A DNA stretch of 62,946 bases, filler included. It is 17 parts of 17 records of this genome, joined end to end, with 100 filler letters (N's around TTAATTAATTAA, not from the genome) between each part and the next. Parts side by side here need not be neighbours in the genome. Positions count along the whole stretch, not along the records: positions 36,474 to 39,661 come from SRR7504441_124781; 16 more parts are not named here. One strand, written 5' to 3'. Below, piece by piece: positions 3,174 through 62,946 of the stretch. The notes below the pieces were generated by a model. The model had not been told where the DNA came from, searched no databases, and saw nothing but the letters and a program-made list of their open reading frames with translations. The position numbers were made by a program, and so were the translations under genes. Each line of letters begins with the position of its first letter. The stretch's first letter is position 1.

Positions 3174-6100
3174 TACAGATACCCAAGTGTTACCACACGT
3201 AAGCAAGCACTTTGCAGAAGTTGCCCTTCTCCTGCTGTCTACATTTGTACTCAAGGCCTTCTTCAGAGGCTTCTCAATCGATCTCGACATCTTTGCATCG
3301 GCAGGGAGCAAAATTGATGTCCCTCCTTGTAATTTAGCCGAAGCAGTCAGCCCCTTATACCGAGGCTTGTTCAGGGTGAGCAGCTCTGATATTGCCACAC
3401 CAGCTTGTGCGGCAATTGATTGCAATGTATCATCATCACGGGCTGAGTACTCTTTGACATCCTCGTCCTCATCCTGCATCTTGCCTTTCTTGGACGCATC
3501 TCTGTCAATCCGGGTGAAGTTGTCCTTTTTGAAGGCGGGCGGTTTCGAGCCAGACTTGGATTTATTCGACCCTTTGTCCTGATCTAGCTGGTCGAGCAGG
3601 AGCTCGTACTCAAACTTCAAATCTCTGTACCTGTTATGGTCATCCTTGGCCATGCAAACATACTGTGCCTTTGCTGTAAATGAGAGGTCATTCCACATTT
3701 GCACTTGTAATTTTTCAAGGTCTTGAGCGCTCATGCCACTATGGCTCTGCGCTATCAACTTATGGTGCTGTTGCAACCAGAATTTGTAAGCTGGCCTCGG
3801 CCGCTCTGGCGGTTTGGGTTTGGCAGCTTCTCTAGCTGCTTCTTCGCGCTTCTCTTCCTCTTCAAGCAAGGTAAGACTATCAAAGGCATGCCGCGGTATG
3901 AGCAGCTCAGTCCCTTCCTGTAAGCGAGCATTTCCGTTAAGCCCTTCATAGCGGCCGCGATTGATCTCAAACAACTCTTTGAACTTCATGCCTAGTTTAA
4001 CAGAGATTTCTTTCAGTGTTTCGTCATCTCGTGCTGAATACAGGTATGGAAGGCGGAGTGCTGTCCCAGCCCTCAGCCGTGCATTCATGGTTAGCCCTTG
4101 CAGATGCTCTTGACCCTTATTGATAGTAAGCAGGTCGCTGACATCAATCCCTGTCTTGTCTGCGATCTGACGGGCAGTTTCGTTCTCCTCTGCTATGTAA
4201 TTTGCACCAGCAGGATCAACGCCTCGAACTGTTGTACCAGGATCCGGTCTTGCACCTTTGCCAGTCAAGTTGCTGATGCTTGAACCAATCTCTTTGCCTG
4301 CAGCCACAAGTAGCTCTGTTTTATCTTTCAGGCGGGCATGCGCCTGAAGCCCTTTATGTCGCCGACGATTGAAGCGCACAAGTTCCTTGGGATCTAAGTC
4401 CAGTTTCTTTCCTATTGTTTGCAACGTCTCGTTCTCTTCAGCAACGTATATGTATGGCAGCAGCAGTTCCGTACCAGCCATCAATTGGGCACCCGCTGAT
4501 ATACCCTTGAAACGCGTTGCATTCATATCAAGCAAGTCTTGAACTTCAACCCCCAGCTCCACAGCAATCTTTGATGGTACTTCATTGTCCTCTGCAATGT
4601 ATACCCCTCGGCGGCGTTGCACAATCTGGCCTTTTGCTGGAGGAATCACAATTTCGGAGTTTTTCTTCAGCCTGGTGTCTTTGCGGAGGCCACTGTGATG
4701 CATCTCATTGATTGCAAGTAAGTGCTCGACGTCTAATTTCCTTTCTCGAGCGATCTGCAACAATGTCGTGCTTTTATCAATTGTTGTGATCCTTTCTAAG
4801 AGCACTTCGCCTTGTGGTATGCGCACCTCAGTACCCCGGCTCAATTGAGTTCCTTGGTAGAACCCATCAAATCTAGCTAGATTGACCGCAATTAAGCTAA
4901 CAATGTCCACATCAAGCTTTTGCGCAATAGCCACTGGAGTCTCTTTGTCTTGTGCATCATACCGGTCCAGGAATTCACTCTGATCTGGCCCATCCTGTTC
5001 TGCTTCTTGGATTGCCATTGCATCTTGTCCGGTTGGATCAAAATCATTGGGCTTACTGGGTGTTTCAGTTGCCTCCTCATCATCAAGTCCAGCATCAGCG
5101 TTATCAGCTACCATACCATCCGCCGGCTTGCTCCCAACTGCACAAACAGTCCAATATAAAAAGGCGCAAACACAGATGCTACTACCAGGCTTGCTCCAGT
5201 GTAGATCTGGCATGTCAAGTCCGGCCAGCTGGCAGGCCGCTTGATATACATTGCCCTGAGTGCCTGCTGTGAGTGTTACCAGCAGCAGTGCGTGCACCTC
5301 GACAGAACTCGGAGTGACAAAGCCGATCAGTTGAGCAAACTGTTGAGAGAACTGCGCACCTGGGGGCAGTACGTGCGCTCAAATTCGCGCCAGGCTCGCG
5401 CGCCATCAGGCAGAGCACACCGAGCTTAAGTTCTGATGCAACGATATCTGAGGCTTTCCGGGATTTCTGTGCTGTCGCTAGTCGCGTGAGCACTTCGGCA
5501 TTGGCATTCAGAACCTGCTGCAGATCCTCCACCAGCGCAGCATTCCCACTGCCCGACCAGAATCAGCGGCCCGCACCAGACTGCAGCCAATGGGAGCGCA
5601 CCAGTGGGGCAGGTGTCCCAGGATATCGATGGTGGGTATGTTCGAGGGGTCGAACTCGTCTGGAGTGGGCACATGCAAAGGCAGTAGCCATCCCTGTGCC
5701 AGGTCAACCTACGCACAATCATTTACCCGTCGAGCTGCCACAATGCCTGCTCCTGCACAGCTGCAATCCGGACATCCGACTGCTCGTTGCCATGCAACAT
5801 TTCTACGATGACGGCCTTGGAAGTGGCCCCGCGCACGTTGGCTCGGTTCCATTTCTTCTTGCGAAGGTTCCAAACCTTGATCAGCGGGAAGCCAGTCCAT
5901 TGCTGCAATTCTTGCCACTCCACCGACAACTTGGGTGTCGGCACGATCCCGAGCCTCACGCTGCTGCGCGCCCCAAGGCGTTCCACGATCTCGGCGAACG
6001 GGATTTCGCACCGAAAGGCATCCGCTTTGGACTTTTCGCGCGTCAACCTGGCCTGGGGCAGCTGGATTGCCGCCGATTGCTTGTGCTGTTGCAGTAGCTG

Positions 6101-6600: not shown

Positions 6601-9600
6601 GATCCTGCATGTCCTCAAACACGATCAATTGCTGCTGGTCGCCAAATAGTGATCGAATGATACGTCCTACCAGCAAAACCACGGAGCCATACAGAAACAC
6701 CAACCCTCCACTCCCCTGTGGCCAAAGCCTTGAGTCGCATCTTGGGCATGGTTAGTACCTCGATGAGAGCGACAAAACCACTGAGGCTATCTTCGGTAAA
6801 GACAGGCAGGTAGGGCCACACCCACTCTCCGCTACTTGGATCGGTGGCATTTGGAAGAAACTGTTGGACTTGCCACCAGCTGCCGCACCTGCCAACTAAC
6901 CTCAGCATTTAGACAGAACAAGGCTTACCAGCCTGCTGAAAGGTACTGAGACCTGAGCGTCAAGAGGATATCGCAGAAGCCCCCCTCCCTGCATCTGCCA
7001 ACACGCGCTTTCCCAACTTCTTTGTCGCGAGGCAGCACAACATCATCGGAATTGGCGTCGGCGACACGAATGCTGTTTGTGCTGGTCCAAACCTTGCCTG
7101 TGGATTCGAGCGCGGTGCAGTTTATCTGCTCCCACTCGTTCACAATCTGTAGTATATCCTGCACACATTTCAATTCCAGTCTGTTCCCTTCGGGTACCAA
7201 ACAATTCACCGGCGACAATAAGCCCTTTGTATGGCCATTTGACGCCTTGTCATGTGACGCCGCGTCATTGATATACACGTTTACATCTGCACTGTCAGAG
7301 TTTTTGACCAACCTGAAGGGCACAGGAAAACATAAATCGCAGCACAGGTCAATAGTCTCACCAGTAACGGAGATCCATGGAACCCGTACCAGCGCCACTT
7401 GCACAATAGTGAAGCATTGTTTTGAGCATCGCCAGCTGAGGTGGAGTCGGATCCCATGTGAAGGAAGAGTTGGAATCGAATTGCAGGCATTGGAAGTTGT
7501 AACTGGCATGCCAATGGTCAGCATGGGGCTCAGAATGCGGCCTCACAGGGATGACGAGTGCGAGCTATTGGATTTCAGATCCGTGCACCGATTTGGATCT
7601 GCCACAGCCAGCATCTGTGGAGTTTGCCAGAGATGAGCAGTTAGTGTTTGCCGGCTGCCAGCCTCCATGAATAGCATTCGTAGCGAAGCGAACGACAATA
7701 CAACGCTATTCGACTCCGAGTTTGGGAATGCACCCGAGAATATAAACAACGGGCCCCACAAGCACAGAACCAGGCCCACTACGATAGAGGCCCCGGCCAA
7801 TAGCTTAAACCACAGCTCTTGAGAGTCGCCTTCTTTTCGACCACTGCGGGCTGCGTCTCTCTCCATAGCCCGATTTTGACGATTGAGGAATAACTGCCGA
7901 TTAATGTCCTCTAGTTTGAACCTGCCATCCATTAAACAAGAGCCAGTACATCCAATCGCACCATTCGAAGAAAGTGAGGGCCGTTCCTATGCACACCCAG
8001 TCCAGAAGTACTCGAATCTCAAATAAAAAGGGGCACAGTGAGTATAGTGTGAACCCAATCAATTTGAAGAACGAGACCTTTTCATTTGCGGTAATATCTC
8101 CAGGTTCATATTTGGTCCAGAAATTCTCGTGCGTCAACATTGTGTACCCGTAGCACACTTGCACCGCCGAGTAGTACCAGTACACGCACTTAAAGAGAAA
8201 GTACATAATGACCACAAACGAGTGGAGCTGCATTGGGGGTCGGTACAAGAGGACAGTTAGGGTCAGCGAGACGGAAGTCAAAAGATGCACCACCTTTCCT
8301 GGTATCCAATTAAGACAGTAGATGATGCGGTCCAGCATCATCATAAAGAACTGCACGAGTAGAATAAAGAACAAATCAGTAGTCAAGTAATCCGCAAGAT
8401 TATCGCTGCCATCGTGGTGAGACGCTCCCTCTGGGTTCTGGGACTCGCTTAGAATCATGTAGAGAAGACTCCAAAAGAATGCCAAGAAGTCCCAAGAAAA
8501 CATCGAAATATAACAGTCTACGCCCCTCAGGCTCTTGCACGAAACGTGCAGACTCAGCGCACGCAGGCAATTGTCTGAGACGCTATTCCATGTCCTCCGC
8601 GTGCCTCGCCTTTTAGGAGCCAGTCTCTTGTCACCCCAGGTGCCAAAGAAAAACATCCAGACCTCCAGCAGCAAGCTGTATTGATGCATGCACTTGAAGA
8701 AGCTCAGCTTACACGAGCCTGGCGCACGGCTCATTTTCAGCTCTTTGGGCGGGATCTGTTGAACCGGGCCCTGAAACCAGGCCTGGTAACCTTCGCCTGG
8801 GGCAGAGTCAGCAATTGAAACTTCTAGAGGGGAAATCGTTGAAGGGAGGTCTTTCTCGACGCGCAGTTTGAACGATCGAAGCAGCTCTTGAAATTCAGCC
8901 AATTTTTCCAGGCGCGTACAGAGATCGCTTTTGCTTGCAATTGCTTCCTCGCAGGCTTCCGGCATATCATCCTCGATAGAAGGCCTCGCAACAACTTCCA
9001 CTCTATTGTCCAGATTGAAGGCTTCCAGCACATCCCTGCATAAATCCTTGACTTGCACAGTGTCCAATGTTTCAGGTGTCACGTAAATAACAAAGGTCAG
9101 TTCCTGGTCTTGGCTATCAACTCTGACTGATGCCTGGTCGACACCTTGAAGTTCTACAACGTCGCGCTCGACAATCTGGCCCGCCTGTCCAAGCAGTGCT
9201 GCCCGAGCCACGTCTACGTCAGCAATTAGGTCTTGTAATGCTGTCTTGATTTTCTCTTTTACAGGCTCCTCGCGCGGTGCCTCGACGCTGCAGACACGCC
9301 GCTTGATCTGCGACAGAAGCGAATCGCTGAGAAGCTTTTCGATGCGTGAACCAATCAAATAATAGTACACGGTCCAGTTGCTTGAACCACTCAGTAAGCA
9401 GTCCACCATCTGAGACAGCGTGTTTCGGAACTCAAACGTGTACAAGTCTTCTAAGTCTTCCACCAGCAGCGACAATACGGACACGTCCTCACTCTCTGAT
9501 CGGACCCCCTCTTGTGTTCTTTCGTCTTGCTGATCGAGCAATTCGAATGCATGACAGAGAGATTCCAATGGAGAATCATACACATCGTGCACCTGGCCAT

Positions 9601-11037
9601 AGTGCCGTCGCTGATCCTTGTGAATGCCCAGCAGAGTGAACAGTATTACCGGAATGAAAAGGTACCAGAATGCATCATCGCCGGAAGAGTTTTTGGCAAC
9701 GCCTAAAAGCACAGGCCAGGACTTGTATGGGCGAACACCGCGCCTGTCGGACCCAGAACTGTCATATGGTCGGGCACAAACGTAACAAACATCGCTGAGA
9801 AACTGATCATTGCTGGGCACAGAAGCGTCTTTGGCACAGAAGCCCTCCCTAGTTTCTGGCAAGGCAGAGTTGGAGCATTGCAACGTTTGGTAAGACGTAG
9901 CACAGAGGCCGCTAGTGTCAACATTGGTCACGAATAAAGGCATCGAAATAGACAAGACCACGACGCAGTAAATTATCAGATAAACGATGATGGCATTCCA
10001 TGCAGCTGGTGAGAGCCTCGGCCGCTGGGTCAACCCAAAGAGGATCAGGCAAGAGGTAAGAATGAGAGTAATGACACCCCCAGTAACTCCATGTTGTAGG
10101 CAAATGAAGAACAGAATGGACTTGCCGATTGTATCGAAAATGCTCTCCCACCAATGTCCCCTTTCATTTTGCACCAAGCGTTGCTTATCCTCTGGGCTGT
10201 AATCTTTCCAGGCAGAGCCAACGCTTTTACTCGCCCTGTGAAGATCCGAGGAATATCTGAACGCCATCCCATCGGCAGTGCGGAGCCAATTCAGAAAGGA
10301 GCCCCCGACTTCTGACAGCCAATTTTGACAGCCGCCTTCTTTCAACGTGTCTGTGCTGTCAGCTGGTCCGTCGAGTTGCTCACCGCTGCCTTGCGACGAG
10401 ACATCCCCCTTTAGCTGTATCTCCCCGGGCTGGCCTGTTGCGGCCAGTTGCTCACAGCTGCCTTGCGACGAGACATCTGCATACAATCTCATGTTGGAAA
10501 GGTTAGACTCTAGAAAAGCAATTTACCTGAAGCGTCGGATTCGTCAGGCTGTTGTTCCTTTGGAGCTGAATCTCGCAACATCAAAGAGTCCGATACCTTT
10601 TCCAATAAAGCCTGGTGGCGCTCTTTTGACTTGTCAAACACCGCTGCGTGCAGAAAATTTAGGAAAAGGCGCTTGAGACTGCTTGCAGGCTAATTTAGCG
10701 CACCTTGCAGATCTCGTACCCGTCGCATGCTGTATATGATGGCACCCAGATAGCGCCGGATCTGGCCAAGCCAGCACAGGGTAAGGCGGGAATCAAAGAG
10801 GCACTGTTACCGCCTTGACTGGGCCGACGTTCTTCTCATAGTGTGCTGTGTACTCCCAGGACGGAGATCGATCAACAAAGGAATCGTGAAGCTGGCAGAG
10901 GACAAAAATGACAATAGGGCCACCGGGCACTCTTTCGTTGTTCTTCTCGGGGTAATAGTGGCTCAAATTGGAGAGAATGCAGCCATCCGCGTTGCTCGCT
11001 GCCCTGGTTTCAGGATTGAAAGAGTTGTATGACAGCA
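6601..11037 (-). CDS. PIEZO: Piezo-type mechanosensitive ion channel, C-terminal part (truncated both ends)
   Basis: Anchor/outer-helix signature CPFLFEIRVLLDWVCIGTALTFFEW|FKLEDI (40-nt intron 7922-7961 restores it), FFMMMLDRIIY, LWGPLFIFS, cap region, and VGRIIRSLFGDQQQLIVFEDMQD at the contig edge. Confidence 0.9.
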
Positions 11038-36473: not shown

Positions 36474-39400
36474 GAACCATGCAAGAATTCACCAATATTG
36501 GACCAGAATATAATGTAGCTCCACAGCCAACCACCGAATTCGCTTTGATCTTGATTTCGCCTATAGTGAGCCCTTTTGCTTCGAATGCATGGCAATTGAG
36601 AAAGGATGCTTCCGCAATCACCACATCATCTTCGATTGAAATGGTGTCATACTCTGTAAGGTAACAAGTATGCAGCGCCACATTCGTGGGAGACACGTAT
36701 GCGCCCATGAGCCGAGCGTAGACTTTAGTGCCGATCGAAGGGAATATGCCTGGAATGTCTCTGGAGCTATTGCACACCAGGTTCGTACATTTCCAGCAGA
36801 ACATGCCCCAGGATCTGTGCTCCAATGGCATGTGCCTCATTAGCCATTTCGAGTCTCGAACAATCAGCCATTTACCTAGGATCGATAGAAGAACAACGAA
36901 AGAAACTACTACCAGCAGAATGAAGGTAATCTTCCATAGTATAATCAAGTAGGGGCGTGATAGCTGTTTGCTAAGCTCCTGCTCGACCAAAAAGCAGTAC
37001 TCGTAGCCAGACTCGTGGCATTGTCCAGCCACACTCAAGAAAAACCAGTCCACAGTGTCTGAGGATACATAATATGCAATGTATGCGGCATATACCCAGA
37101 TCAGCACTAGAAAAACGAAAGCAATGTCCTCGTGCATGACATCGAAAGACTCAGCGAAATCGTCTCGACCATCCTTACCTTCTCCAATTGAGATCGCTGT
37201 ATTGTGGACGCACAGTGAGTTATCTGGAGGATCGATGGAGACTGCACAGTGGCTGCTCAGAACATGTCTTCCTGCACCTCCAACCACAGTGCTATGCATA
37301 CCAAACCAGCAATTTGAACCTACAGAATCAGCATCTCTCACCCTCACGATGCTCATCAATCTGAAAAATGAGCAGGCGCCTCCGGACAACCAGTGCCAAC
37401 ACCCTGATGTAGAGCAGCCTGTAATCACCGCACTCCGGTCCATTCCAGAGCCGATCAAGGCTCGAAGGAACCCCTGAAATCGGTATATCCCGCATTGAAC
37501 AGCTGTGTCTCCAAATATATTGTCACAGTAGTAGACGTGAGCATATGGAAGCTTGTTGCGGAGGGACCAGACTAGCCACCAGCCGCATACCCAGAGCAAG
37601 AACACTGGAACCAGCAAGAAGGGTAGCGCTGCGCCGAGCAGAAGCCCAAGCACCCATACATTGGGTTGCATCGGCAACCTCATCAGTCCAAAGAAGAATA
37701 CAGGACCACATGCGCTGGTGAGGCATACGCGGATAGCCACAAGGCTCGCCTGTGCAAGCGCATCACCCCAAGTTGGAGCCACTCTATCGTGCCCGTTGAT
37801 GACCACAGCTTGCCCACTACCATCAAAGGGAGCCCTGACATACCTAGCATCGAATCGTGGTAGCACCAGATTCCCCCAAAGCGCATGTTGAACACAGAAC
37901 CTTCCTGCAAGATGTCCATCACAGGGTCCTGCTGAACAGACTGACTGGATGTCGCAGACACCATTGCCCCAGTCCCCAAACCCACTCAAGACATGTTTAA
38001 TCGCTGGCGACATTATCACACAGCTTCCAATCCCGCTCATCCTATGAGCAATGGCTACTTCAAACGAGTACAACTGTTCAACAATCCAAGGCACTGTGAA
38101 GCGTGAGAATTCGGTTGATCTGACTCTTGCATATACTAACATGAGTATCAGGGGCCGGATCTGCATGAAGATGCCAATGAAAAAGAGCTGCACATAGAGT
38201 GATGGGATGCCAGTCTCTACATCGAGCTCCGCACCTGTCCATATGACAAGCGCGATTGTTGCCACAGTCGGAACCATCAGGAATAGACCGAGAACAAATC
38301 CAGCAGCCCAGTGGATCTGTGGCTCCCTTGACATCACTACAGTGCCCCAGTTAAAGATCTCTTTCGTGTGTGCGCAGCGATGCGAGTGGTCTCCCAATGA
38401 GCTCAGCCCCAGCCTATACATGCAAGTCACAGTGTTGAGCCCAAAACAACCAATCCATAGCGCATTGGTGGGGTGGCCGTAAGCGCAGCACAGTTGGTCA
38501 TCTGGTTTATCATTCTCTTGGGAAAAGTCTCGAGAGCATAGTGCTGAGCCGAAATCTCGCTGCAAAATGTGGTTGTCGTCATGGCGGTGAGATGTCCTGC
38601 CACGGCTTTTTAAACTAGCATCGCTGTCGTTCACGGTAGCTCCTGTCGCGGCTGTTTGTGTGATTCGCAGAGATCTTGCCACCATTTCGCTTATTCCATC
38701 AATAGTAAAATTTTTAAGTATATCGATCACAGAGTGATCAGACGCAGTGCTCACTCCAGAATATTCGATTCGTAACTTGGATTGAATCCCCACGGCGCTG
38801 CGACTGGTCAATCCCCAGCTCCATAAGTTGTCAGTTGGCTCTGGCCCAGGTTCACAGTTGTCACAGCACTCCCAAATGATCTTGCGCACCGTCGACAGAA
38901 TTGCCCCAAATTGATTGTCCTGACGTTCTTTGGCAAGCTCGGTGCGCTTAGGGGAGCTTGGGACCGCTCTACCGTGGAATGCCTGTTCCAACTGTACATT
39001 CTGCAGATCAGAGCCTCGTGCTTCGCCCCCAGCTGGGTTGCTTGCCTGGTCTCTCTGTATCCTGTTGCTGCTTTCATTTCCAGGTTCAGACGCCTCACAA
39101 ACTCCTGCTACACGCTGACGTGCTTTCAACAGTGAACCTCGCAGCCCAGGCTTGCTTCCCGAAAGCACGTGTAGCCTGTTCGTCTCTGGGCTAGACGTGG
39201 CTTCCTCATTAGATCCGTTCTTTGGCGCATCGTAGACATCGTCAATGGTCTTCCGTGAAAAATGCTTTATCCTGAACCGCAAGATTCCTTCCTTTGGCTT
39301 GAAGCTCAAAAACTCGTCCCCGTTCTGTTCAACTCTTGACTTGATTCTTTGCTCATGGTTTCTCTGTTCCTTCGCCAACCTGCCTGGCCTTGGTATTTGT

Positions 39401-39661
39401 TCCACTGTCACAATGAACGGGCTATTCAAGGTGGGTAATTGCTGTCGATCGAGCACCACTCCTGTCCCTGTGATCTGTATCGCATCCAACTCGAGTGTCC
39501 TGAGATCAATCGGCTCGTCCCATTCTATCGATCCAAATCCGGGTCGACAGAGTGTGAAATTCGCTATGGTCTGGAGCTCCAATGGGGCCATGCAGCGCAG
39601 CGTCCGGATCGGTGGACAGCTAACATACCCGGGTTTTGTGAGCACCGGGAGTGCTGCATGG
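36474..39661 (-). CDS. Nup98-type autopeptidase (S59) domain + carrier (T/ACP) domain + Pls/PosA-type membrane/left-handed-beta-helix region; partial both ends
   Basis: One stop-free frame across the whole contig. LTKPGYVSCPP...NFTLCRPGFGSIEW..PIDLRTLELD...LNSPFIVT...FLSFKPKEGILRFRIKHFS (HFS at 39256-39264). DNLWSWGLTSRSAVGIQSKLR...IDILKNFTI (Ser codon 38803-38805). TM pairs alternate with repeats ending GTKVYARLMGAYV...LTEYDTISIEDDVVIAEASFLNCHAFE..GLTIGEIKIKANSVVG. Confidence 0.8.
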
Positions 39662-59857: not shown

Positions 59858-62800
59858 GTACAAGACAGGATCTGTGATGTAATAGCTCGAGTTCTGAACC
59901 TGGCCAGCGTGAGTTCTTCAGCCGGGTTCTTCCACCTGGGCGGCGACTCAGTCACAGCAATTCGGGTCTGTTCGATCGCGAGGCAGCGGGGGATCATTTT
60001 CACTGTACGCGACCTGCTGATCTGCCAGACCGCTGCTCAACTCGCTCTTCACGCCAAGGTATCACTGATGAGTAACGACGTGAATCGTGGAGAGGACGCC
60101 TTGGTCGAAGGTGACGTGGCGCTGACACCGATTCAGCAGTGGTTCTTCCAACATCAGTTCTCTGCAGCTGATCACTGGAATCAAGCAATTTCGCTGAGCT
60201 GCGGTGCTTCGGTGGATCCCTCGAGACTAAAGGTGCGGCCCGTGCGCATGTAGGCGCTAACTTTCTGGGTCTGCCGCAGGCTGCACTGGCTCGCCTGCAA
60301 GATCACCATGACATGCTTCGATGCCGCTACAGGAATCAGCCAGATGGAAGCTACCGCCAGCTCATCCAGCCAAGCCACGCTACAGAGCTGCCTTCGCTTA
60401 CTGTCATTGAGCAGACTGCGGATGTTGAGCGGGCGCTCGACGATCTGCAGGGCAGCCTCAGCCTGTCTGACGGCCCTGTGTGGGCTGCAGCACTGGTCAG
60501 TGGGTCGCCTGACCGGGTTGTGCTCGTGTTCCATCACCTGGTTGTCGACGCGGTGTCCTGGAGAATCATTGAAGAGGATCTCGGACACGCCTACGCTGCC
60601 CGGCGGCTACCAGCCAAGAGCAGCTCGTTCCAAGCCTGGGCGACTGGCTTCAACCAGCACCTGCAGGCGCGACTTCCGTGGCATTCAGGCGCTGGCACGA
60701 CAGCGCCTCTGCCGATGCAAGTCCAGACTGTGAACCCTAGGCACCGGACCAGAGCACAGCAAGCATCAATCACCGTCAGGCTGAGCCCCAGAAAGAGCGC
60801 TCAGCTGCTCGCCGATGCCAACACCGCGCTCCGTACGCGGCCTCAGGAGTTGATGCTCGCTGCTCTTGCGCTGGCCTATGAGGAATGGTGTGGCGCGTCC
60901 CAGCTGGCAGTTGTACTCGAGGGGCACGGCCGGGAAGCTTTCGATGATACTATCGACGTGTCTCGTACTGTGGGCTGGTAAGGCCCTAGCCATGCCACTG
61001 TTTGCCTTATGGTTGGTTGTGCTCGGTGCAGGTTCACCGCCATGTGGGCTGTGCAGCTGCAAATCGGAGAGTGCAGTACCAGCAGCGATGCGTCTCTGCT
61101 GGAGGCAATCTGTGCCGTCAAGGAGCAGCTGCGTGCTGTGCCAAAGCATGTGCAGCAGTTCGGTGTGGACCCTGCAACCCTCGAGCCGGCCCAACTGGTG
61201 TTTAATTACCTCGGGAACTTCGGCAACGGCTCGAGCTCAGATAGCCCTTCTCGCGAGGAGGGCTTCCAGCTCGACTGTCAGCCTGTAGGTGAGTGCGTCT
61301 GCGCAGTAAACCATGCAACATCTGCTCTTGCTCTCAATGGGGCGATCAGAAACGGCCAACTGGAGATGGCTTGGAGTTTCAGCTCGCTCGAGTTCTCGAC
61401 CGACTCAATGCAACAATTTGCAGAGACCTGGGTGAGCATGCTCGGCAGAGTGATTACTGCTGGCTGTGCAGCTGATCCCAGGCGGAGCTCGCCTTCTGAC
61501 TTTCCGCTGTGCGGTTTGTCGCAGCAGCAGCTGGACAGTGTAATGACGAAGCTCCCAGAGGACCATACAGTCTCTAGCTTACTGAAGCTGACAGGGCTCC
61601 AGTCAGGGCTGGTAGCTGCGACTCTACTTCAACCAACGCAGTACGTCACGCAGATCCTGCGGACAGTCCATGGCAAGTTTGAAGTTTCACGATTGCGGAG
61701 GGCTTGGGAAATGGTTGCTCAGGTGCATGACGCCCTACGCACCAGGGTGGTCGTAGGTCAGCTGCCACACGCGGTCCAAGCCGTGCTGCAAGGCGCCGGA
61801 CCCTTTGTGGGCTGGCAGCACATAGATGCAAGTCAGCGTGGAGGCCGCATTCAGGAACTTGTGTATGAGATCTCGAGAGCGGAGAGGCAGAGCAGCTTCG
61901 CTTTCGAAGGCGAGCCTCTGATGGGAGTCAGTGTGATCTCCGGCCCGAGTGTAACCTATCTCATTGAGACCAATCACCACTGCATCCTGGACGGCTGGTC
62001 TGGGGCCATCTTGTTGCAAGACGTGCTTGGGTCGTATCGAGGGCAGACTGTCTCGGTTCCAGTGCCCTACCATCGCATCGTGGAGCGGATATTGTCCCAA
62101 GACACACGGGCACAACGCAAGTTTTGGACTGAGACATTAGATGGCTGCTGCTGCACAGAATTAGGCCTGCCCGAGCCTCCTGCTGGCGCAGAGTCCTCAA
62201 AACGCAGCGTACGCATCGAAGGTGTGCAATGTCACCATATTACAGCCGAGCTCGGGGTGAGCCTGGCAGCATTAGTGAATGCTGCCTGGGCCTTGGTGCT
62301 GCACTGCTGGAGCGGGCAAGCGACCGTGCTCTTCGGTATGGTAATGTCTGGACGCAGTGAAGGCTTTGAAAGTACAGTAGGTCTGCTAATCAACACCCTA
62401 CCCCTCGACGTTGAGGTCAATCGCACCAGCCGCGCGGGTGATTTGCTCAGAGCAGTGCAGCGACGCATGACCGATATGATACCTCACGAGACCACATCCC
62501 TCCAGGAGGTACAGCGGTGGACTGAGATCCGGCCTTTGTTTGAGACTTCGGTGGTGTTTGAGAACTTCCCAGACCTACAAGAGAAGGAGCCCGAGCCCTC
62601 ATTTCAGGTGGAATTCGTTGAAGCATTCGAGGAAGCGGATTTCATGGTGGGCTTGGCAGCACACAACAGAGACGCAGGACTGACACTGGAGATCCGCAAC
62701 AACGGTGAAAGGGTTAGCAGAGAAGATGCAGACATGCTGTTAGAGGCCACGAAGCATGCCGCTTCGTGGCTGCTTCTCTCTCACAACTGGGCCGAGCCGG

Positions 62801-62946
62801 TCAGCGCTGTACTGGATAGTATGCCCACGCGGCCGCTGGCTGGCATCTCCAGCATGGGACCTGTAGAGCAGGAGCTGCTATTGGAGCGCTGGAACGCCAC
62901 AGCCAGCCCATGTGCTGCGGGCGGCACCGCACCAGGCGTGTTCGAG
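59858..62946 (+). CDS. Non-ribosomal peptide synthetase fragment: T - epimerization (E) - condensation (DCL-type) - start of A domain
   Basis: T: FFHLGGDS (Ser 59948-50). E motifs: LTPIQQWF, HHDMLR, HHLVVDAVSW (60532), EGHGRE, SRTVGWFT, KEQLRAVP, FNYLG. Linker SPSDFPL. C: HHCILDGWS (61975), SGR, VGLLINTLP. Ends LLERWNAT. Introns 60233-60279 and 60978-61031. Confidence 0.93.

Follow-up and report, generated by a model that had tools for sequence, protein, structure and literature searches.

P0001, an open reading frame of 1062 codons, begins with a peptidase S59 domain of the Nup98 type and continues in frame into a carrier-protein-like region and a membrane part resembling the Pls/PosA synthetases. 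We infer, with a probability of roughly 0.55, that it belongs to a protist thiotemplate (NRPS/PKS-like) enzyme that would be split and then docked by the S59 module through self-cleavage; in this reading the contig comes from a marine microbial eukaryote and holds part of one gene. In the literature and databases searched, the in-frame order S59, carrier-like region and synthetase-like membrane part is not described, and the nearest relatives of the S59 domain are attached to polyketide synthases.

A single frame across an entire contig

The window, i.e., the whole stretch of 62,946 nucleotides analyzed, consists of 17 contigs of 3.0–4.7 kb with 16 spacers, N-runs around TTAATTAATTAA, between them. 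The finding occupies one entire contig of 3188 bp (36474–39661), both ends of which are contig ends. Since the window joins separate contigs, the sequence neighboring 36474–39661 is unlinked to it, and the preliminary description was correct in placing the missing upstream part off the contig. On translation, P0001 (minus strand, 36474–39660) has zero stops in 1062 codons and is open at both ends, so that the earlier claim of a single stop-free frame of about 1060 codons is borne out with exact coordinates. The five remaining frames of the contig contain 21–51 stops; given the base composition, 1062 codons free of stops would arise by chance with a probability of 1.5e-23. GC and GC3 stay level over the whole contig, with no composition break; an adapter search found no adapter remnants inside the contig and a repeat search no internal repeats. 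The frame is coding along its full length.

Other contigs of the window carry Piezo and HMG/LysM frames. The codon use of the downstream part of P0001 correlates with these frames (r = 0.86) and looks eukaryotic. For the first 250 codons, r is 0.60 against the rest of the contig and 0.45–0.71 against other contigs; codon use does not decide here, neither tying the S59 end to the rest nor separating the two. A word-indexed protein search returned no match for P0001, and none for the Piezo-like frame of the window. With A-T-Pls, ACP-KS-S59, and S59 proteins as tblastn queries, no further piece was found in the remaining 16 contigs. A dinoflagellate origin was considered and dropped for lack of evidence.

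The features of the contig are as follows (window coordinates, strand, residues of P0001, basis).

39595–39661, no strand assigned: contig end matching high-copy sequence in the containing run (three short contigs, depth 39–142)
39259–39660, minus: peptidase S59 (Nup98-type autoproteolytic) domain, residues 1–134, non-nucleoporin subgroup (Pfam, structures, tree)
39256–39264, minus: H133-F134-S135, predicted scissile bond F134/S135 (direct sequence reading)
38926–39255, minus: linker 1, residues 136–245, polar, low complexity, starting S-R-K-T-I-D-D (family match absent)
38656–38925, minus: carrier-protein-like (T/PCP-like) four-helix region, residues 246–335 (alignment register, models)
38803–38805, minus: Ser286 of G-L-T-S (W-G-L-T-S), candidate phosphopantetheine attachment site (alignment with relatives)
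38320–38655, minus: linker 2, residues 336–447 (no match by any search)
38122–38319, minus: hydrophobic helix pair 1, residues 448–513 (448–479/488–513; Kyte-Doolittle peaks 2.56, 2.02)
37750–38121, minus: soluble block 1, residues 514–637, unrecognizable (no significant match)
37558–37749, minus: hydrophobic helix pair 2, residues 638–701 (638–660/665–701; Kyte-Doolittle peaks 1.75, 2.54)
37135–37557, minus: soluble block 2, residues 702–842, unrecognizable (no significant match)
36853–37134, minus: hydrophobic helix pair 3, residues 843–936 (843–867/900–936; Kyte-Doolittle peaks 2.13, 2.97)
36475–36852, minus: soluble block 3, residues 937–1062, Pls/PosA-type repeat (TIGR02353, hhalign, tblastn)

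The S59 domain and its place in the family

The PF04096 (Nucleoporin2/S59) profile matches residues 10–136 over its positions 2–145 of 148 with 58.7 bits (cut-off 28.4), and the contig begins about nine residues N-terminal to this match. In phmmer alignments, residues 1–134 run end to end along solved Nup98 autoproteolytic domains and stop at HF; 18 solved nucleoporin chains match the domain at E ≤ 1 (best E 5.1e-07). In the S59 domains of 68 FG-rich nucleoporins, the frequencies in the site columns are 0.97 for H, 1.0 for F, and 0.97 for S, and the other columns with at least 70% conservation are largely retained by P0001. By these comparisons the S59 domain of P0001 is genuine and full-length, with H-F-S intact, and cleavage is predicted. 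The Nup98-type autoproteolytic domain with an intact H-F-S motif at 39256–39264, as first proposed, is thus confirmed by the PF04096 score and the structure alignment, and so is the lack of Nup96 downstream, PF04096 being the sole Pfam family matched anywhere in the 1062 residues.

In a tree of 146 S59 domains, which includes the 68 FG-rich nucleoporin rows, the P0001 domain groups within an 18-row set (SH-aLRT 93) that contains 10 ketosynthase-linked rows and 0/68 of the FG-rich nucleoporins. The K-P-x-x-G loop is missing in P0001 and in 17/17 other rows of the set. The nucleoporin W at alignment column 170 is L in P0001 and L, V, or F in 17/17 other rows; the nucleoporin Y at column 82 is D in P0001 and in 15 of the 17. 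On these sequence characters, the P0001 domain is a member of an existing non-nucleoporin S59 set and no fresh copy of a nucleoporin. The idea that a nucleoporin module had been co-opted into an NRPS-like line holds for the joining, in one frame, of an S59 domain and a Pls/PosA-like part, and fails for a fresh borrowing from a nucleoporin. It is barely credible, then, that P0001 is a true Nup98 orthologue with Nup96 replaced, a nuclear-pore component tethering a membrane protein: the domain family is indeed the nucleoporin family, and the position of upstream FG repeats would fall beyond the contig, but the loop, the Y, and the W are absent and the domain groups apart from all 68 FG-rich rows.

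Ketosynthase-linked relatives

According to Pfam, a ketosynthase and an S59 domain occur together in six proteins (P0003, P0005, P0045, P0152, P0155, and the L001 frame); all six are unannotated, belong to the 18-row set, and derive from marine eukaryote catalogues. In P0155, the order is ACP-KS-S59. Throughout the ketosynthase-linked relatives, S59 is the last domain and the stop falls 0–23 residues past HF, in the L001 frame exactly at HF. With S59 at the C-terminus, it is therefore no spacer between two large parts in these proteins, and, judging by them, it may serve mainly to bind and not to cut. H-F-S is retained in 9/10 ketosynthase-linked rows of the set; the site of P0045 reads HSP. 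In the seven rows without ketosynthase, H-F-S occurs in none (six degenerate, with NFN, QFN, QLK, QFL, and HFE among them as sites, and one sequence stopping short of the site).

Such site loss, in P0045 and in the rows without ketosynthase, suggests that the fold often serves without being cleaved, and L001, which ends at HF, therefore needs no cut. These observations speak for a real fusion with a non-cleaving S59, a fixed interaction or scaffold domain or a relic within an uncleaved multidomain protein. Against it, P0001 keeps H133, F134, and S135 intact, as do nearly all its ketosynthase-linked relatives, together with most of the well-conserved nucleoporin S59 columns; we hold this explanation to be unlikely, though deserving of some weight. 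The reading of P0001 as a self-cleaving thiotemplate enzyme accords with the intact site.

A scan of metagenome contigs with a smaller S59 alignment gave one locus, L001. When longer proteins were searched through a word index with the S59 alignment, four matches came up, none with a megasynthase domain. The nearest language-model cluster of P0155 is dominated by haptophytes (score 0.90, 158 shared features), and the haptophyte link of P0155 is taken as a lead only.

The carrier-like region

Downstream from the site, the 110 open codons of linker 1 would arise by chance in about 0.4% of cases (an estimate from a per-codon stop rate of 0.048). The region that follows (residues 246–335) is in register with the T domain of the Pls/PosA relatives: with both hhalign and MAFFT, Ser286 aligns with the Ser of their GG(H/D)S motif. 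The hhalign E-value of the region against the relatives' T domain is 0.36, and PF00550 (PP-binding) gives no match on residues 236–345 at E ≤ 10 and none over all of P0001 at E ≤ 1.

In an alignment-guided model of residues 246–335 (pLDDT 64–78), carrier proteins make up 46/50 of the best PDB rows (Z 7.1–10.9); since the alignment contained T domains, this model is not independent of it. A single-sequence model of residues 236–345 has a pLDDT of 52 and a best Z of 5.1, with carriers in 9/50 of the best rows. In either model, the second long helix begins with Ser286. Language-model features place clusters of PP-binding plus Hexapep Pls/PosA proteins at the top (scores 0.94–0.96). Alignment register, the alignment-guided model, and the language-model features thus point weakly, below sequence significance, to a carrier domain at residues 246–335. 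The carrier-protein motif W-G-L-T-S announced with its Ser at 38803–38805 is present; its identity as a carrier is not supported by the PP-binding profile.

The membrane part and its likeness to Pls/PosA synthetases

Three hydrophobic helix pairs alternate with three soluble blocks after linker 2, the pairs being read from a Kyte-Doolittle scan with a 19-residue window, a simple hydropathy scan rather than a topology predictor. The third block, which the end of the contig truncates some 60 residues short of the expected C-terminus, carries the likeness. TIGR02353 matches residues 901–1052 only, over profile positions 33–177 of 695, with 39.1 bits (cut-off 423.1). With hhalign, the block matches the final repeat in 10 A-T-hexapeptide relatives (97% probability, E 4.8e-11), and tblastn finds 30% identity to P0026 and P0137. 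These comparisons make block 3 a homologue of the last repeat in Pls/PosA-type synthetases. Of the family motif Q-T-H-L-F-E-D-R, it retains H-x-F-E. Most of the longer Q-T-H-L-F-E-D-R-V-M-K motif is missing from P0001, which casts doubt on catalysis by the membrane part.

The regions of P0001 run in the same order as those of the 10 A-T-hexapeptide relatives (MAFFT). Neither block 1 nor block 2 could be matched significantly to the Pls/PosA alignment, and model confidence in both is low; an internal repeat test gave no significant mutual similarity among the three membrane units. AMP-binding gave no match on the P0001 fragment, in which the S59 domain and the linker occupy the position of the relatives' A domain. 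The alternating TM-helix/beta-helix blocks of the preliminary description hence stand as far as three hydrophobic helix pairs go, with a beta-helix for one of the three blocks only. Of the three profiles it named for scanning, PF04096 lies above its cut-off, PP-binding has no match, and TIGR02353 falls far below its cut-off.

Searches for the combined architecture

An exhaustive search of 1.84 billion representatives found both halves in no protein among the 150 matches listed (there were 280 more); the Pls/PosA relatives among these matches are about 29% identical, in one block only. Scanning metagenome contigs with the whole of P0001 gave no relative. A literature search returned no description of an S59 plus Pls/PosA-like architecture, and no paper was found that links S59 or nucleoporins to polyketide, ketosynthase, dinoflagellate, or PKZILLA; in the broader S59 literature, none of the matches listed concerns megasynthases by title. 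The statement that no protein with the order S59, carrier, and membrane part has been described therefore holds for the literature searched and for the matches listed from the 1.84 billion representatives.

Fusion or assembly chimera

One DNA sequencing run contains the contig (34% of the sampled words) and may be the source sample; among the sequencing runs searched, no RNA run contains it. Within the one containing run, no read or independent contig bridges 38420–39303 (884 bases), and both sides of this interval are present at depth 2–5. The contig end at 39595–39661 matches high-copy sequence in the same run; repeats are therefore present in this gene family.

An assembly chimera, with the S59 end and the carrier/membrane part coming from two genes of one or two organisms, could take support from the shortness of the contig and the low coverage of the sample, from the interval that independently assembled contigs leave without cover, from the high-copy match, and from an architecture that no database protein among the matches listed repeats. 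A mis-join would, however, have to keep the strand, the frame, and the 110-codon open linker (about 0.4% if noncoding); the composition shows no break, adapters and internal repeats are absent, and the one run contains both sides at similar depth. Moreover, this S59 subgroup is tied to megasynthases, so that a thiotemplate partner, as in the six ketosynthase-S59 relatives, is expected for the P0001 domain and would be unlikely in a random join. We consider a chimera improbable.

Two separate genes or exons, with S59 ending the upstream one, the carrier and membrane part forming the downstream one, and an open intron or spacer between them, would agree with the terminal position of S59 in the ketosynthase-linked relatives, and introns are possible in eukaryotic genomic DNA. 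Against this stand the lack of any stop in 1062 codons and the 927 further codons past the site, compared with 0–23 in the relatives, which make the arrangement very improbable. A single chain comprising S59, carrier-like region, and membrane part is the reading pursued below.

Proposed mechanism and its meaning

In the thiotemplate enzyme that we propose, S59 would cut its own chain at F134/S135, as in Nup98-Nup96, which self-cleaves via its autoproteolytic domain. It would then remain non-covalently bound to the new N-terminus S-R-K-T-I-D-D and in this way dock a lost upstream soluble catalytic unit onto the membrane-anchored unit of carrier and transferase. In the nearest relatives the upstream unit is ACP-KS; here it could possibly be an adenylation domain, the preliminary description having suggested an adenylation/FAAL domain. 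Two assembly-line subunits would thus be connected by a docking pair that the S59 module installs by itself. By analogy with Pls, an acyl or aminoacyl group bound to the carrier would be handed by the membrane unit to a free acceptor at the membrane. A complex prediction for S59 (residues 1–134) against residues 135–235 scored 0.00, which is evidence neither way.

A broader version, which we put forward tentatively, is that in a marine protist lineage, possibly haptophyte-like, a paralogue of the Nup98 domain became the standard megasynthase junction, cutting and then docking subunits made as a single chain. S59 would end one subunit, free itself from the next, and then hold the new N-terminus of the latter. 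P0001 would represent the uncut fused state (upstream unit, S59, carrier, and membrane transferase) and the ketosynthase-S59 proteins the already split state.

To our knowledge, the S59 fold is regarded as a nucleoporin-only autopeptidase. If the ketosynthase-linked group and the link of P0001 to a carrier/membrane synthetase are both true, S59 would have a second biological role, and assembly lines a new route of construction, in which one chain is cut in cis and its halves are docked. Should S59 indeed be the standard junction, no earlier autoproteolytic splitting and docking device would be known from thiotemplate biosynthesis, nor any earlier enzymatic role of S59 outside the nuclear pore. 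Such a device would matter for how marine algae assemble their very large polyketide and peptide enzymes (for toxins and polymers), and engineered synthetases could gain from it a compact docking module that cleaves itself. P0001 suggests, in addition, that Pls-type membrane synthetases occur in protists.

Comparison with known systems

Like Nup98-Nup96/Nup145 (MEROPS S59, PF04096), P0001 has a full-length domain of the same fold family with H-F-S at its C-terminal edge and, next in cis, a second polypeptide whose first residue would be Ser. Unlike Nup98-Nup96, it has no Nup96, no K-P-x-x-G loop, and neither of the near-invariant Y and W of the FG nucleoporins. With the ketosynthase-S59 proteins (P0003, P0005/P0155, P0152, P0045, L001), it shares the same signatures, 36–41% identity in S59, and the thiotemplate context; whereas S59 comes last in those proteins, P0001 continues for at least 927 residues into a carrier/membrane unit.

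PMC9205021 gives the architecture of Pls, the epsilon-poly-L-lysine synthetase, as A-T together with three tandem soluble domains surrounded by six TM segments. P0001 resembles Pls in having a carrier-like region and then three helix pairs alternating with three soluble blocks, and block 3 is homologous to the last repeat of the Pls/PosA family (TIGR02353). Unlike Pls/PosA, P0001 has no adenylation domain between S59 and the carrier region, its blocks 1 and 2 (124 and 141 residues) are unrecognizable, and the motif of block 3 is partly kept.

Other modules cut in cis while their halves stay associated, namely GAIN, FIIND/ZU5-UPA, and SEA (for FIIND, at an S-F/S motif). The logic proposed for P0001, a cut in cis with the halves kept together, would be that of these modules; P0001 differs from them in fold and cellular setting. 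We know of no cis-autoproteolytic module of the GAIN, FIIND, or SEA type in biosynthetic megasynthases.

The docking (communication) domains of NRPS/PKS systems hold separately folded assembly-line subunits together non-covalently; they are encoded by two genes and consist of short helical or beta-hairpin elements. One solved example, by its title, stands at row 26 of the PDB matches of the carrier model. The role proposed for P0001 would, by analogy, be the same non-covalent holding of subunits. Unlike docking domains, the P0001 pair would arise when an S59 fold of 135 residues cleaves the single chain that contains it.

An open frame with an S59 domain

The minus-strand frame from 39660 to 36474 runs for 1062 codons without a stop, in keeping with the preliminary description (about 1060 codons in a single frame), and its translation is named P0001. 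The other five frames of contig 36474-39661 contain 21-51 stops each, and base composition gives a probability of 1.5e-23 for an open frame of 1062 codons. In the Pfam scan, the single family matching P0001 is Nucleoporin2/peptidase S59 (58.7 bits, cut-off 28.4; residues 10-136, profile positions 2-145 of 148). A search of solved structures pairs residues 1-134, over their full length and as far as H-F, with the autoproteolytic domains of Nup98 and Nup145; 18 chains match at E up to 1 (best E 5.1e-07). The S59 assignment first made from the sequence alone is thus upheld by the profile and by alignment to solved domains, and the two motifs, read directly from the sequence, lie exactly where they had been placed:

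39256-39264, minus strand: H133-F134-S135
38803-38805, minus strand: Ser286 of W-G-L-T-S

P0001 begins with the S59 domain, with H-F-S intact, and continues into a linker, a carrier-like region and a membrane part. The observation stands; its reading is supported in part, and is widened by the relatives of the S59 domain.

S59 relatives linked to ketosynthases

An exhaustive phmmer search with P0001 against 1.84e9 representatives gave 430 matches at E up to 1e-3, none below 1e-30. Among the 150 of these 430 that are listed, 140 cover the S59 part only, 10 cover residues 900-1061 only and none matches both halves. The best S59 matches (38-41% identity) are not nucleoporins. One or more ketosynthase (KS) domains occur upstream of S59 (Pfam) in the database proteins P0003, P0005, P0045, P0152 and P0155 and in a frame of the metagenome contig locus L001; in P0155 the order is PP-binding, KS, linker, S59. 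S59 is the final domain in these KS-S59 relatives. The chains of P0002, P0004, P0005, P0152, P0154 and P0155 end 9 residues past H-F-S, and that of P0003 ends 22 residues past it. In L001 (3-1226, plus strand), Ketoacyl-synt_C and S59 share one frame with TAG immediately after H-F, and the predicted protein would be made already in "cleaved" form. Two KS-S59 relatives carry the source label "merc".

The S59 tree contains 146 domains out of 158 stored proteins (148 have the domain; two short ones were left out). P0001 falls in a set of 18 rows with an SH-aLRT of 93, under the star mark of 95, in what is a quick-search tree. P0001 is joined there by 10 KS-linked and 7 other rows, and all 68 FG-rich nucleoporins fall outside. 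A row is termed "KS-linked" when it resembles the stretch that precedes S59 in P0155; for P0004 and P0015 the resemblance extends to the linker only. The K-P-x-x-G loop, with K, P and G columns conserved at 0.81, 0.79 and 0.97 in FG-rich nucleoporins, is missing in P0001 and in all 17 other rows. The nucleoporin Y (0.97) is replaced by D in P0001 and 15/17 of the others, and the nucleoporin W (1.0) by L, V or F in P0001 and 17/17. These column counts back the placement in the tree and, judged by sequence, the S59 domain of P0001 belongs to a megasynthase-linked set: it is a member of S59, and not of the nucleoporin type.

P0001 retains H-F-S, as do nine of the 10 KS-linked rows; the remaining one stops at H-F. 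The site is degenerate in six of the 7 non-KS rows, and the seventh, P0022, halts before it. In P0045, a KS-linked long branch lying apart from the set, the site reads H-S-P.

Two further observations concern these relatives. In P0011 and P0156, one copy of a Cys-rich unit (C-D-Y-C-G-H ... C-P-C-G-G) stands on each side of an S59 domain whose site is degenerate (Q-F-L), and Pfam gives a weak Zn-ribbon match alone for the unit; by sequence, this is a further non-nucleoporin setting of S59. P0011 carries Trinity transcript names ("eukprot" source), so that at least this protein derives from RNA. In P0152 (197-236) and P0002 (107-146), the first 30 S59 positions are matched a second time, weakly (about 10 bits), upstream of the full domain; this may be a partial duplication.

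The carrier-like region around Ser286

The motif of the carrier domain (T) proposed at W-G-L-T-S is present, and a carrier identity is supported by the alignment register, an alignment-guided model and language-model features, but not by sequence profiles: Pfam PP-binding has no match in residues 236-345 at E up to 10. With hhalign, these residues land on the T domain of the relatives, Ser286 on the Ser of G-G-H-S, at a non-significant E of 0.36; MAFFT independently yields the same register. The AlphaFold model, built from 11 aligned rows, has low confidence as a whole (mean pLDDT 41); residues 246-335 reach 64-78 and form four helices, the second long one starting at Ser286. When it is compared with 48161 solved chains, carrier proteins, or modules aligned at the carrier domain, make up 46 of the top 50 rows (Z 7.1-10.9), and the remaining four are chains of large complexes. 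Since this model leans on the T domains within its own alignment, residues 236-345 were also folded alone, giving the same helix pattern at pLDDT 52, but a best Z of only 5.1, with carriers in no more than 9/50 rows. A language-model look-up of residues 236-1062, a lead rather than a test, finds PP-binding plus Hexapep Pls/PosA clusters nearest (0.94-0.96). A carrier identity for the Ser286 region is fairly probable.

The membrane part

The hydropathy scan of P0001 picks out three pairs of strongly hydrophobic segments, six in all and on the minus strand:

residues 448-479/488-513: hydrophobic pair 1
residues 638-660/665-701: hydrophobic pair 2
residues 843-867/900-936: hydrophobic pair 3

Each pair is followed by a soluble block. 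The one NCBIfam match is TIGR02353 (Pls/PosA family), over residues 901-1052 only and at 39.1 bits, under the cut-off of 423.1. The exhaustive search supplied ten relatives of the C-terminal part for an alignment. Five were scanned with Pfam: P0026, P0050, P0078 and P0137 have AMP-binding, PP-binding and Hexapep, as does P0044 with a partial AMP-binding domain. Residues 920-1049 match the last repeat of this alignment (hhalign probability 97%, E 4.8e-11), and sequence homology of block 3 to the last Pls/PosA repeat is thereby established; by this register, the C-terminus would be expected about 60 residues past the contig end. Only H, F and E of the family motif Q-T-H-L-F-E-D-R-V-M-K are retained in block 3 (N-C-H-A-F-E-A-K-G-L-T). 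Blocks 1 (124 residues) and 2 (141 residues) have no significant match to the ten-relative alignment, to each other or to block 3. Thus, of the Pls-like alternation of membrane and beta-helix blocks first described, the hydrophobic segments and the third block hold, and the first two blocks are unrecognisable.

Fusion or assembly chimera

The window (62946 bases) consists of 17 contigs of 3.0-4.7 kb (GC 0.49-0.68) and 16 artificial spacers (N-runs around TTAATTAATTAA). Positions 36474-39661 are exactly one entire contig (3188 bases, GC 0.505), so that adjoining sequences are unlinked, gene neighbourhood across spacers carries no meaning and the upstream part supposed to lie off-contig is literally so. 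The only run containing the contig is labelled marine metagenome. Frames of other contigs contain eukaryotic families (Piezo, HMG box with LysM, LRR, GH79, GH123, COPA/B-type propeller), and these contigs therefore derive from one eukaryote or several. Long open frames at 7901-10522 (minus strand; Piezo, 107.5 bits) and 3174-5378 (minus strand; HMG box and LysM) may come from the same eukaryote as P0001, with codon use at r 0.86 to its downstream part.

The main risk is that assembly chimerism joined the S59 end to the carrier/membrane part. Both halves are present in that one run, with depths that are low and much alike, yet no read or independent contig bridges 38420-39303, and protein and metagenome-contig searches gave no second example of the architecture among the matches listed. 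The first 67 bases of the contig, at the S59 start (39595-39661), match three short contigs of depth 39-142, one departing beyond 39649, against about 3 (2-5) elsewhere; that sample therefore contains repeats of the family, which make mis-joins more likely. This repeated family probably broke the assembly there. Across the junction, however, strand, frame and a 110-codon open linker are all intact, neither GC nor GC3 shifts along the contig, and it contains no adapter or repeat. Codon use of the S59 end, a short stretch, does not discriminate; that of the downstream part, like the Piezo and HMG/LysM frames, argues against a bacterial stray. The partner of S59 is a thiotemplate enzyme, as in the KS-S59 relatives. 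We regard a chimera as unlikely and a genuine fusion as the better reading.

A separate contig (59858-62946, GC 0.583), with no link shown to that of P0001, has two Condensation (NRPS C) domains that share a frame, interrupted once by a stop (60979-60981):

60172-60978, plus strand: Condensation domain 1 (Pfam 105.8 bits)
60982-62946, plus strand: Condensation domain 2 (Pfam 201.4 bits), open at the contig end

A possible mechanism

Nup98 is cleaved between F and S via an N-to-O acyl shift at the Ser, and keeps hold of the Nup96 N-terminus after the cut. By analogy, P0001 would cut its own chain between F134 and S135 through the same shift, and its S59 domain would retain the strand that follows. 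The cut would free a soluble upstream unit, with S59 as its last domain, from a membrane unit that starts S-R-K-T-I-D-D and bears the carrier-like domain; the freed unit would nevertheless stay docked on the membrane unit. Because the relatives stop at or just past H-F, binding is proposed as the conserved job of the domain, which suggests that the P0001 gene could represent, in fused form, a docking pair encoded separately elsewhere. By analogy with Pls, the membrane part might, at the membrane, transfer a carrier-bound unit onto a free acceptor; this least certain element is doubtful, since most conserved motifs are lost.

Comparison with known systems

The pieces of P0001 belong to known families; the arrangement is not known. 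As the preliminary description had supposed, no such protein was found in the literature or among the database matches listed. Searches found no paper tying S59 or the nucleoporin autopeptidase to polyketide, ketosynthase or nonribosomal enzymes (supplementary domain tables may hold such architectures), and the S59 papers among the matches listed concern, by title, nucleoporins or generic gene lists only. With Nup98/Nup145, P0001 shares the S59 domain and H-F-S, but lacks the K-P-x-x-G loop, Y and W. Pls is described as having A-T and, after it, three tandem soluble domains surrounded by six membrane segments (PMC9205021), and the layout of P0001, with a carrier-like region, six hydrophobic segments and three soluble blocks, agrees with this. 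By sequence, P0001 is like the Pls/PosA family and not a scoring member, most of its membrane domain being too divergent for recognition. The KS-linked set is a new point, in that S59 occurs outside nucleoporins, in ketosynthase proteins; S59 is terminal there, whereas in P0001 the carrier/membrane part comes after it.
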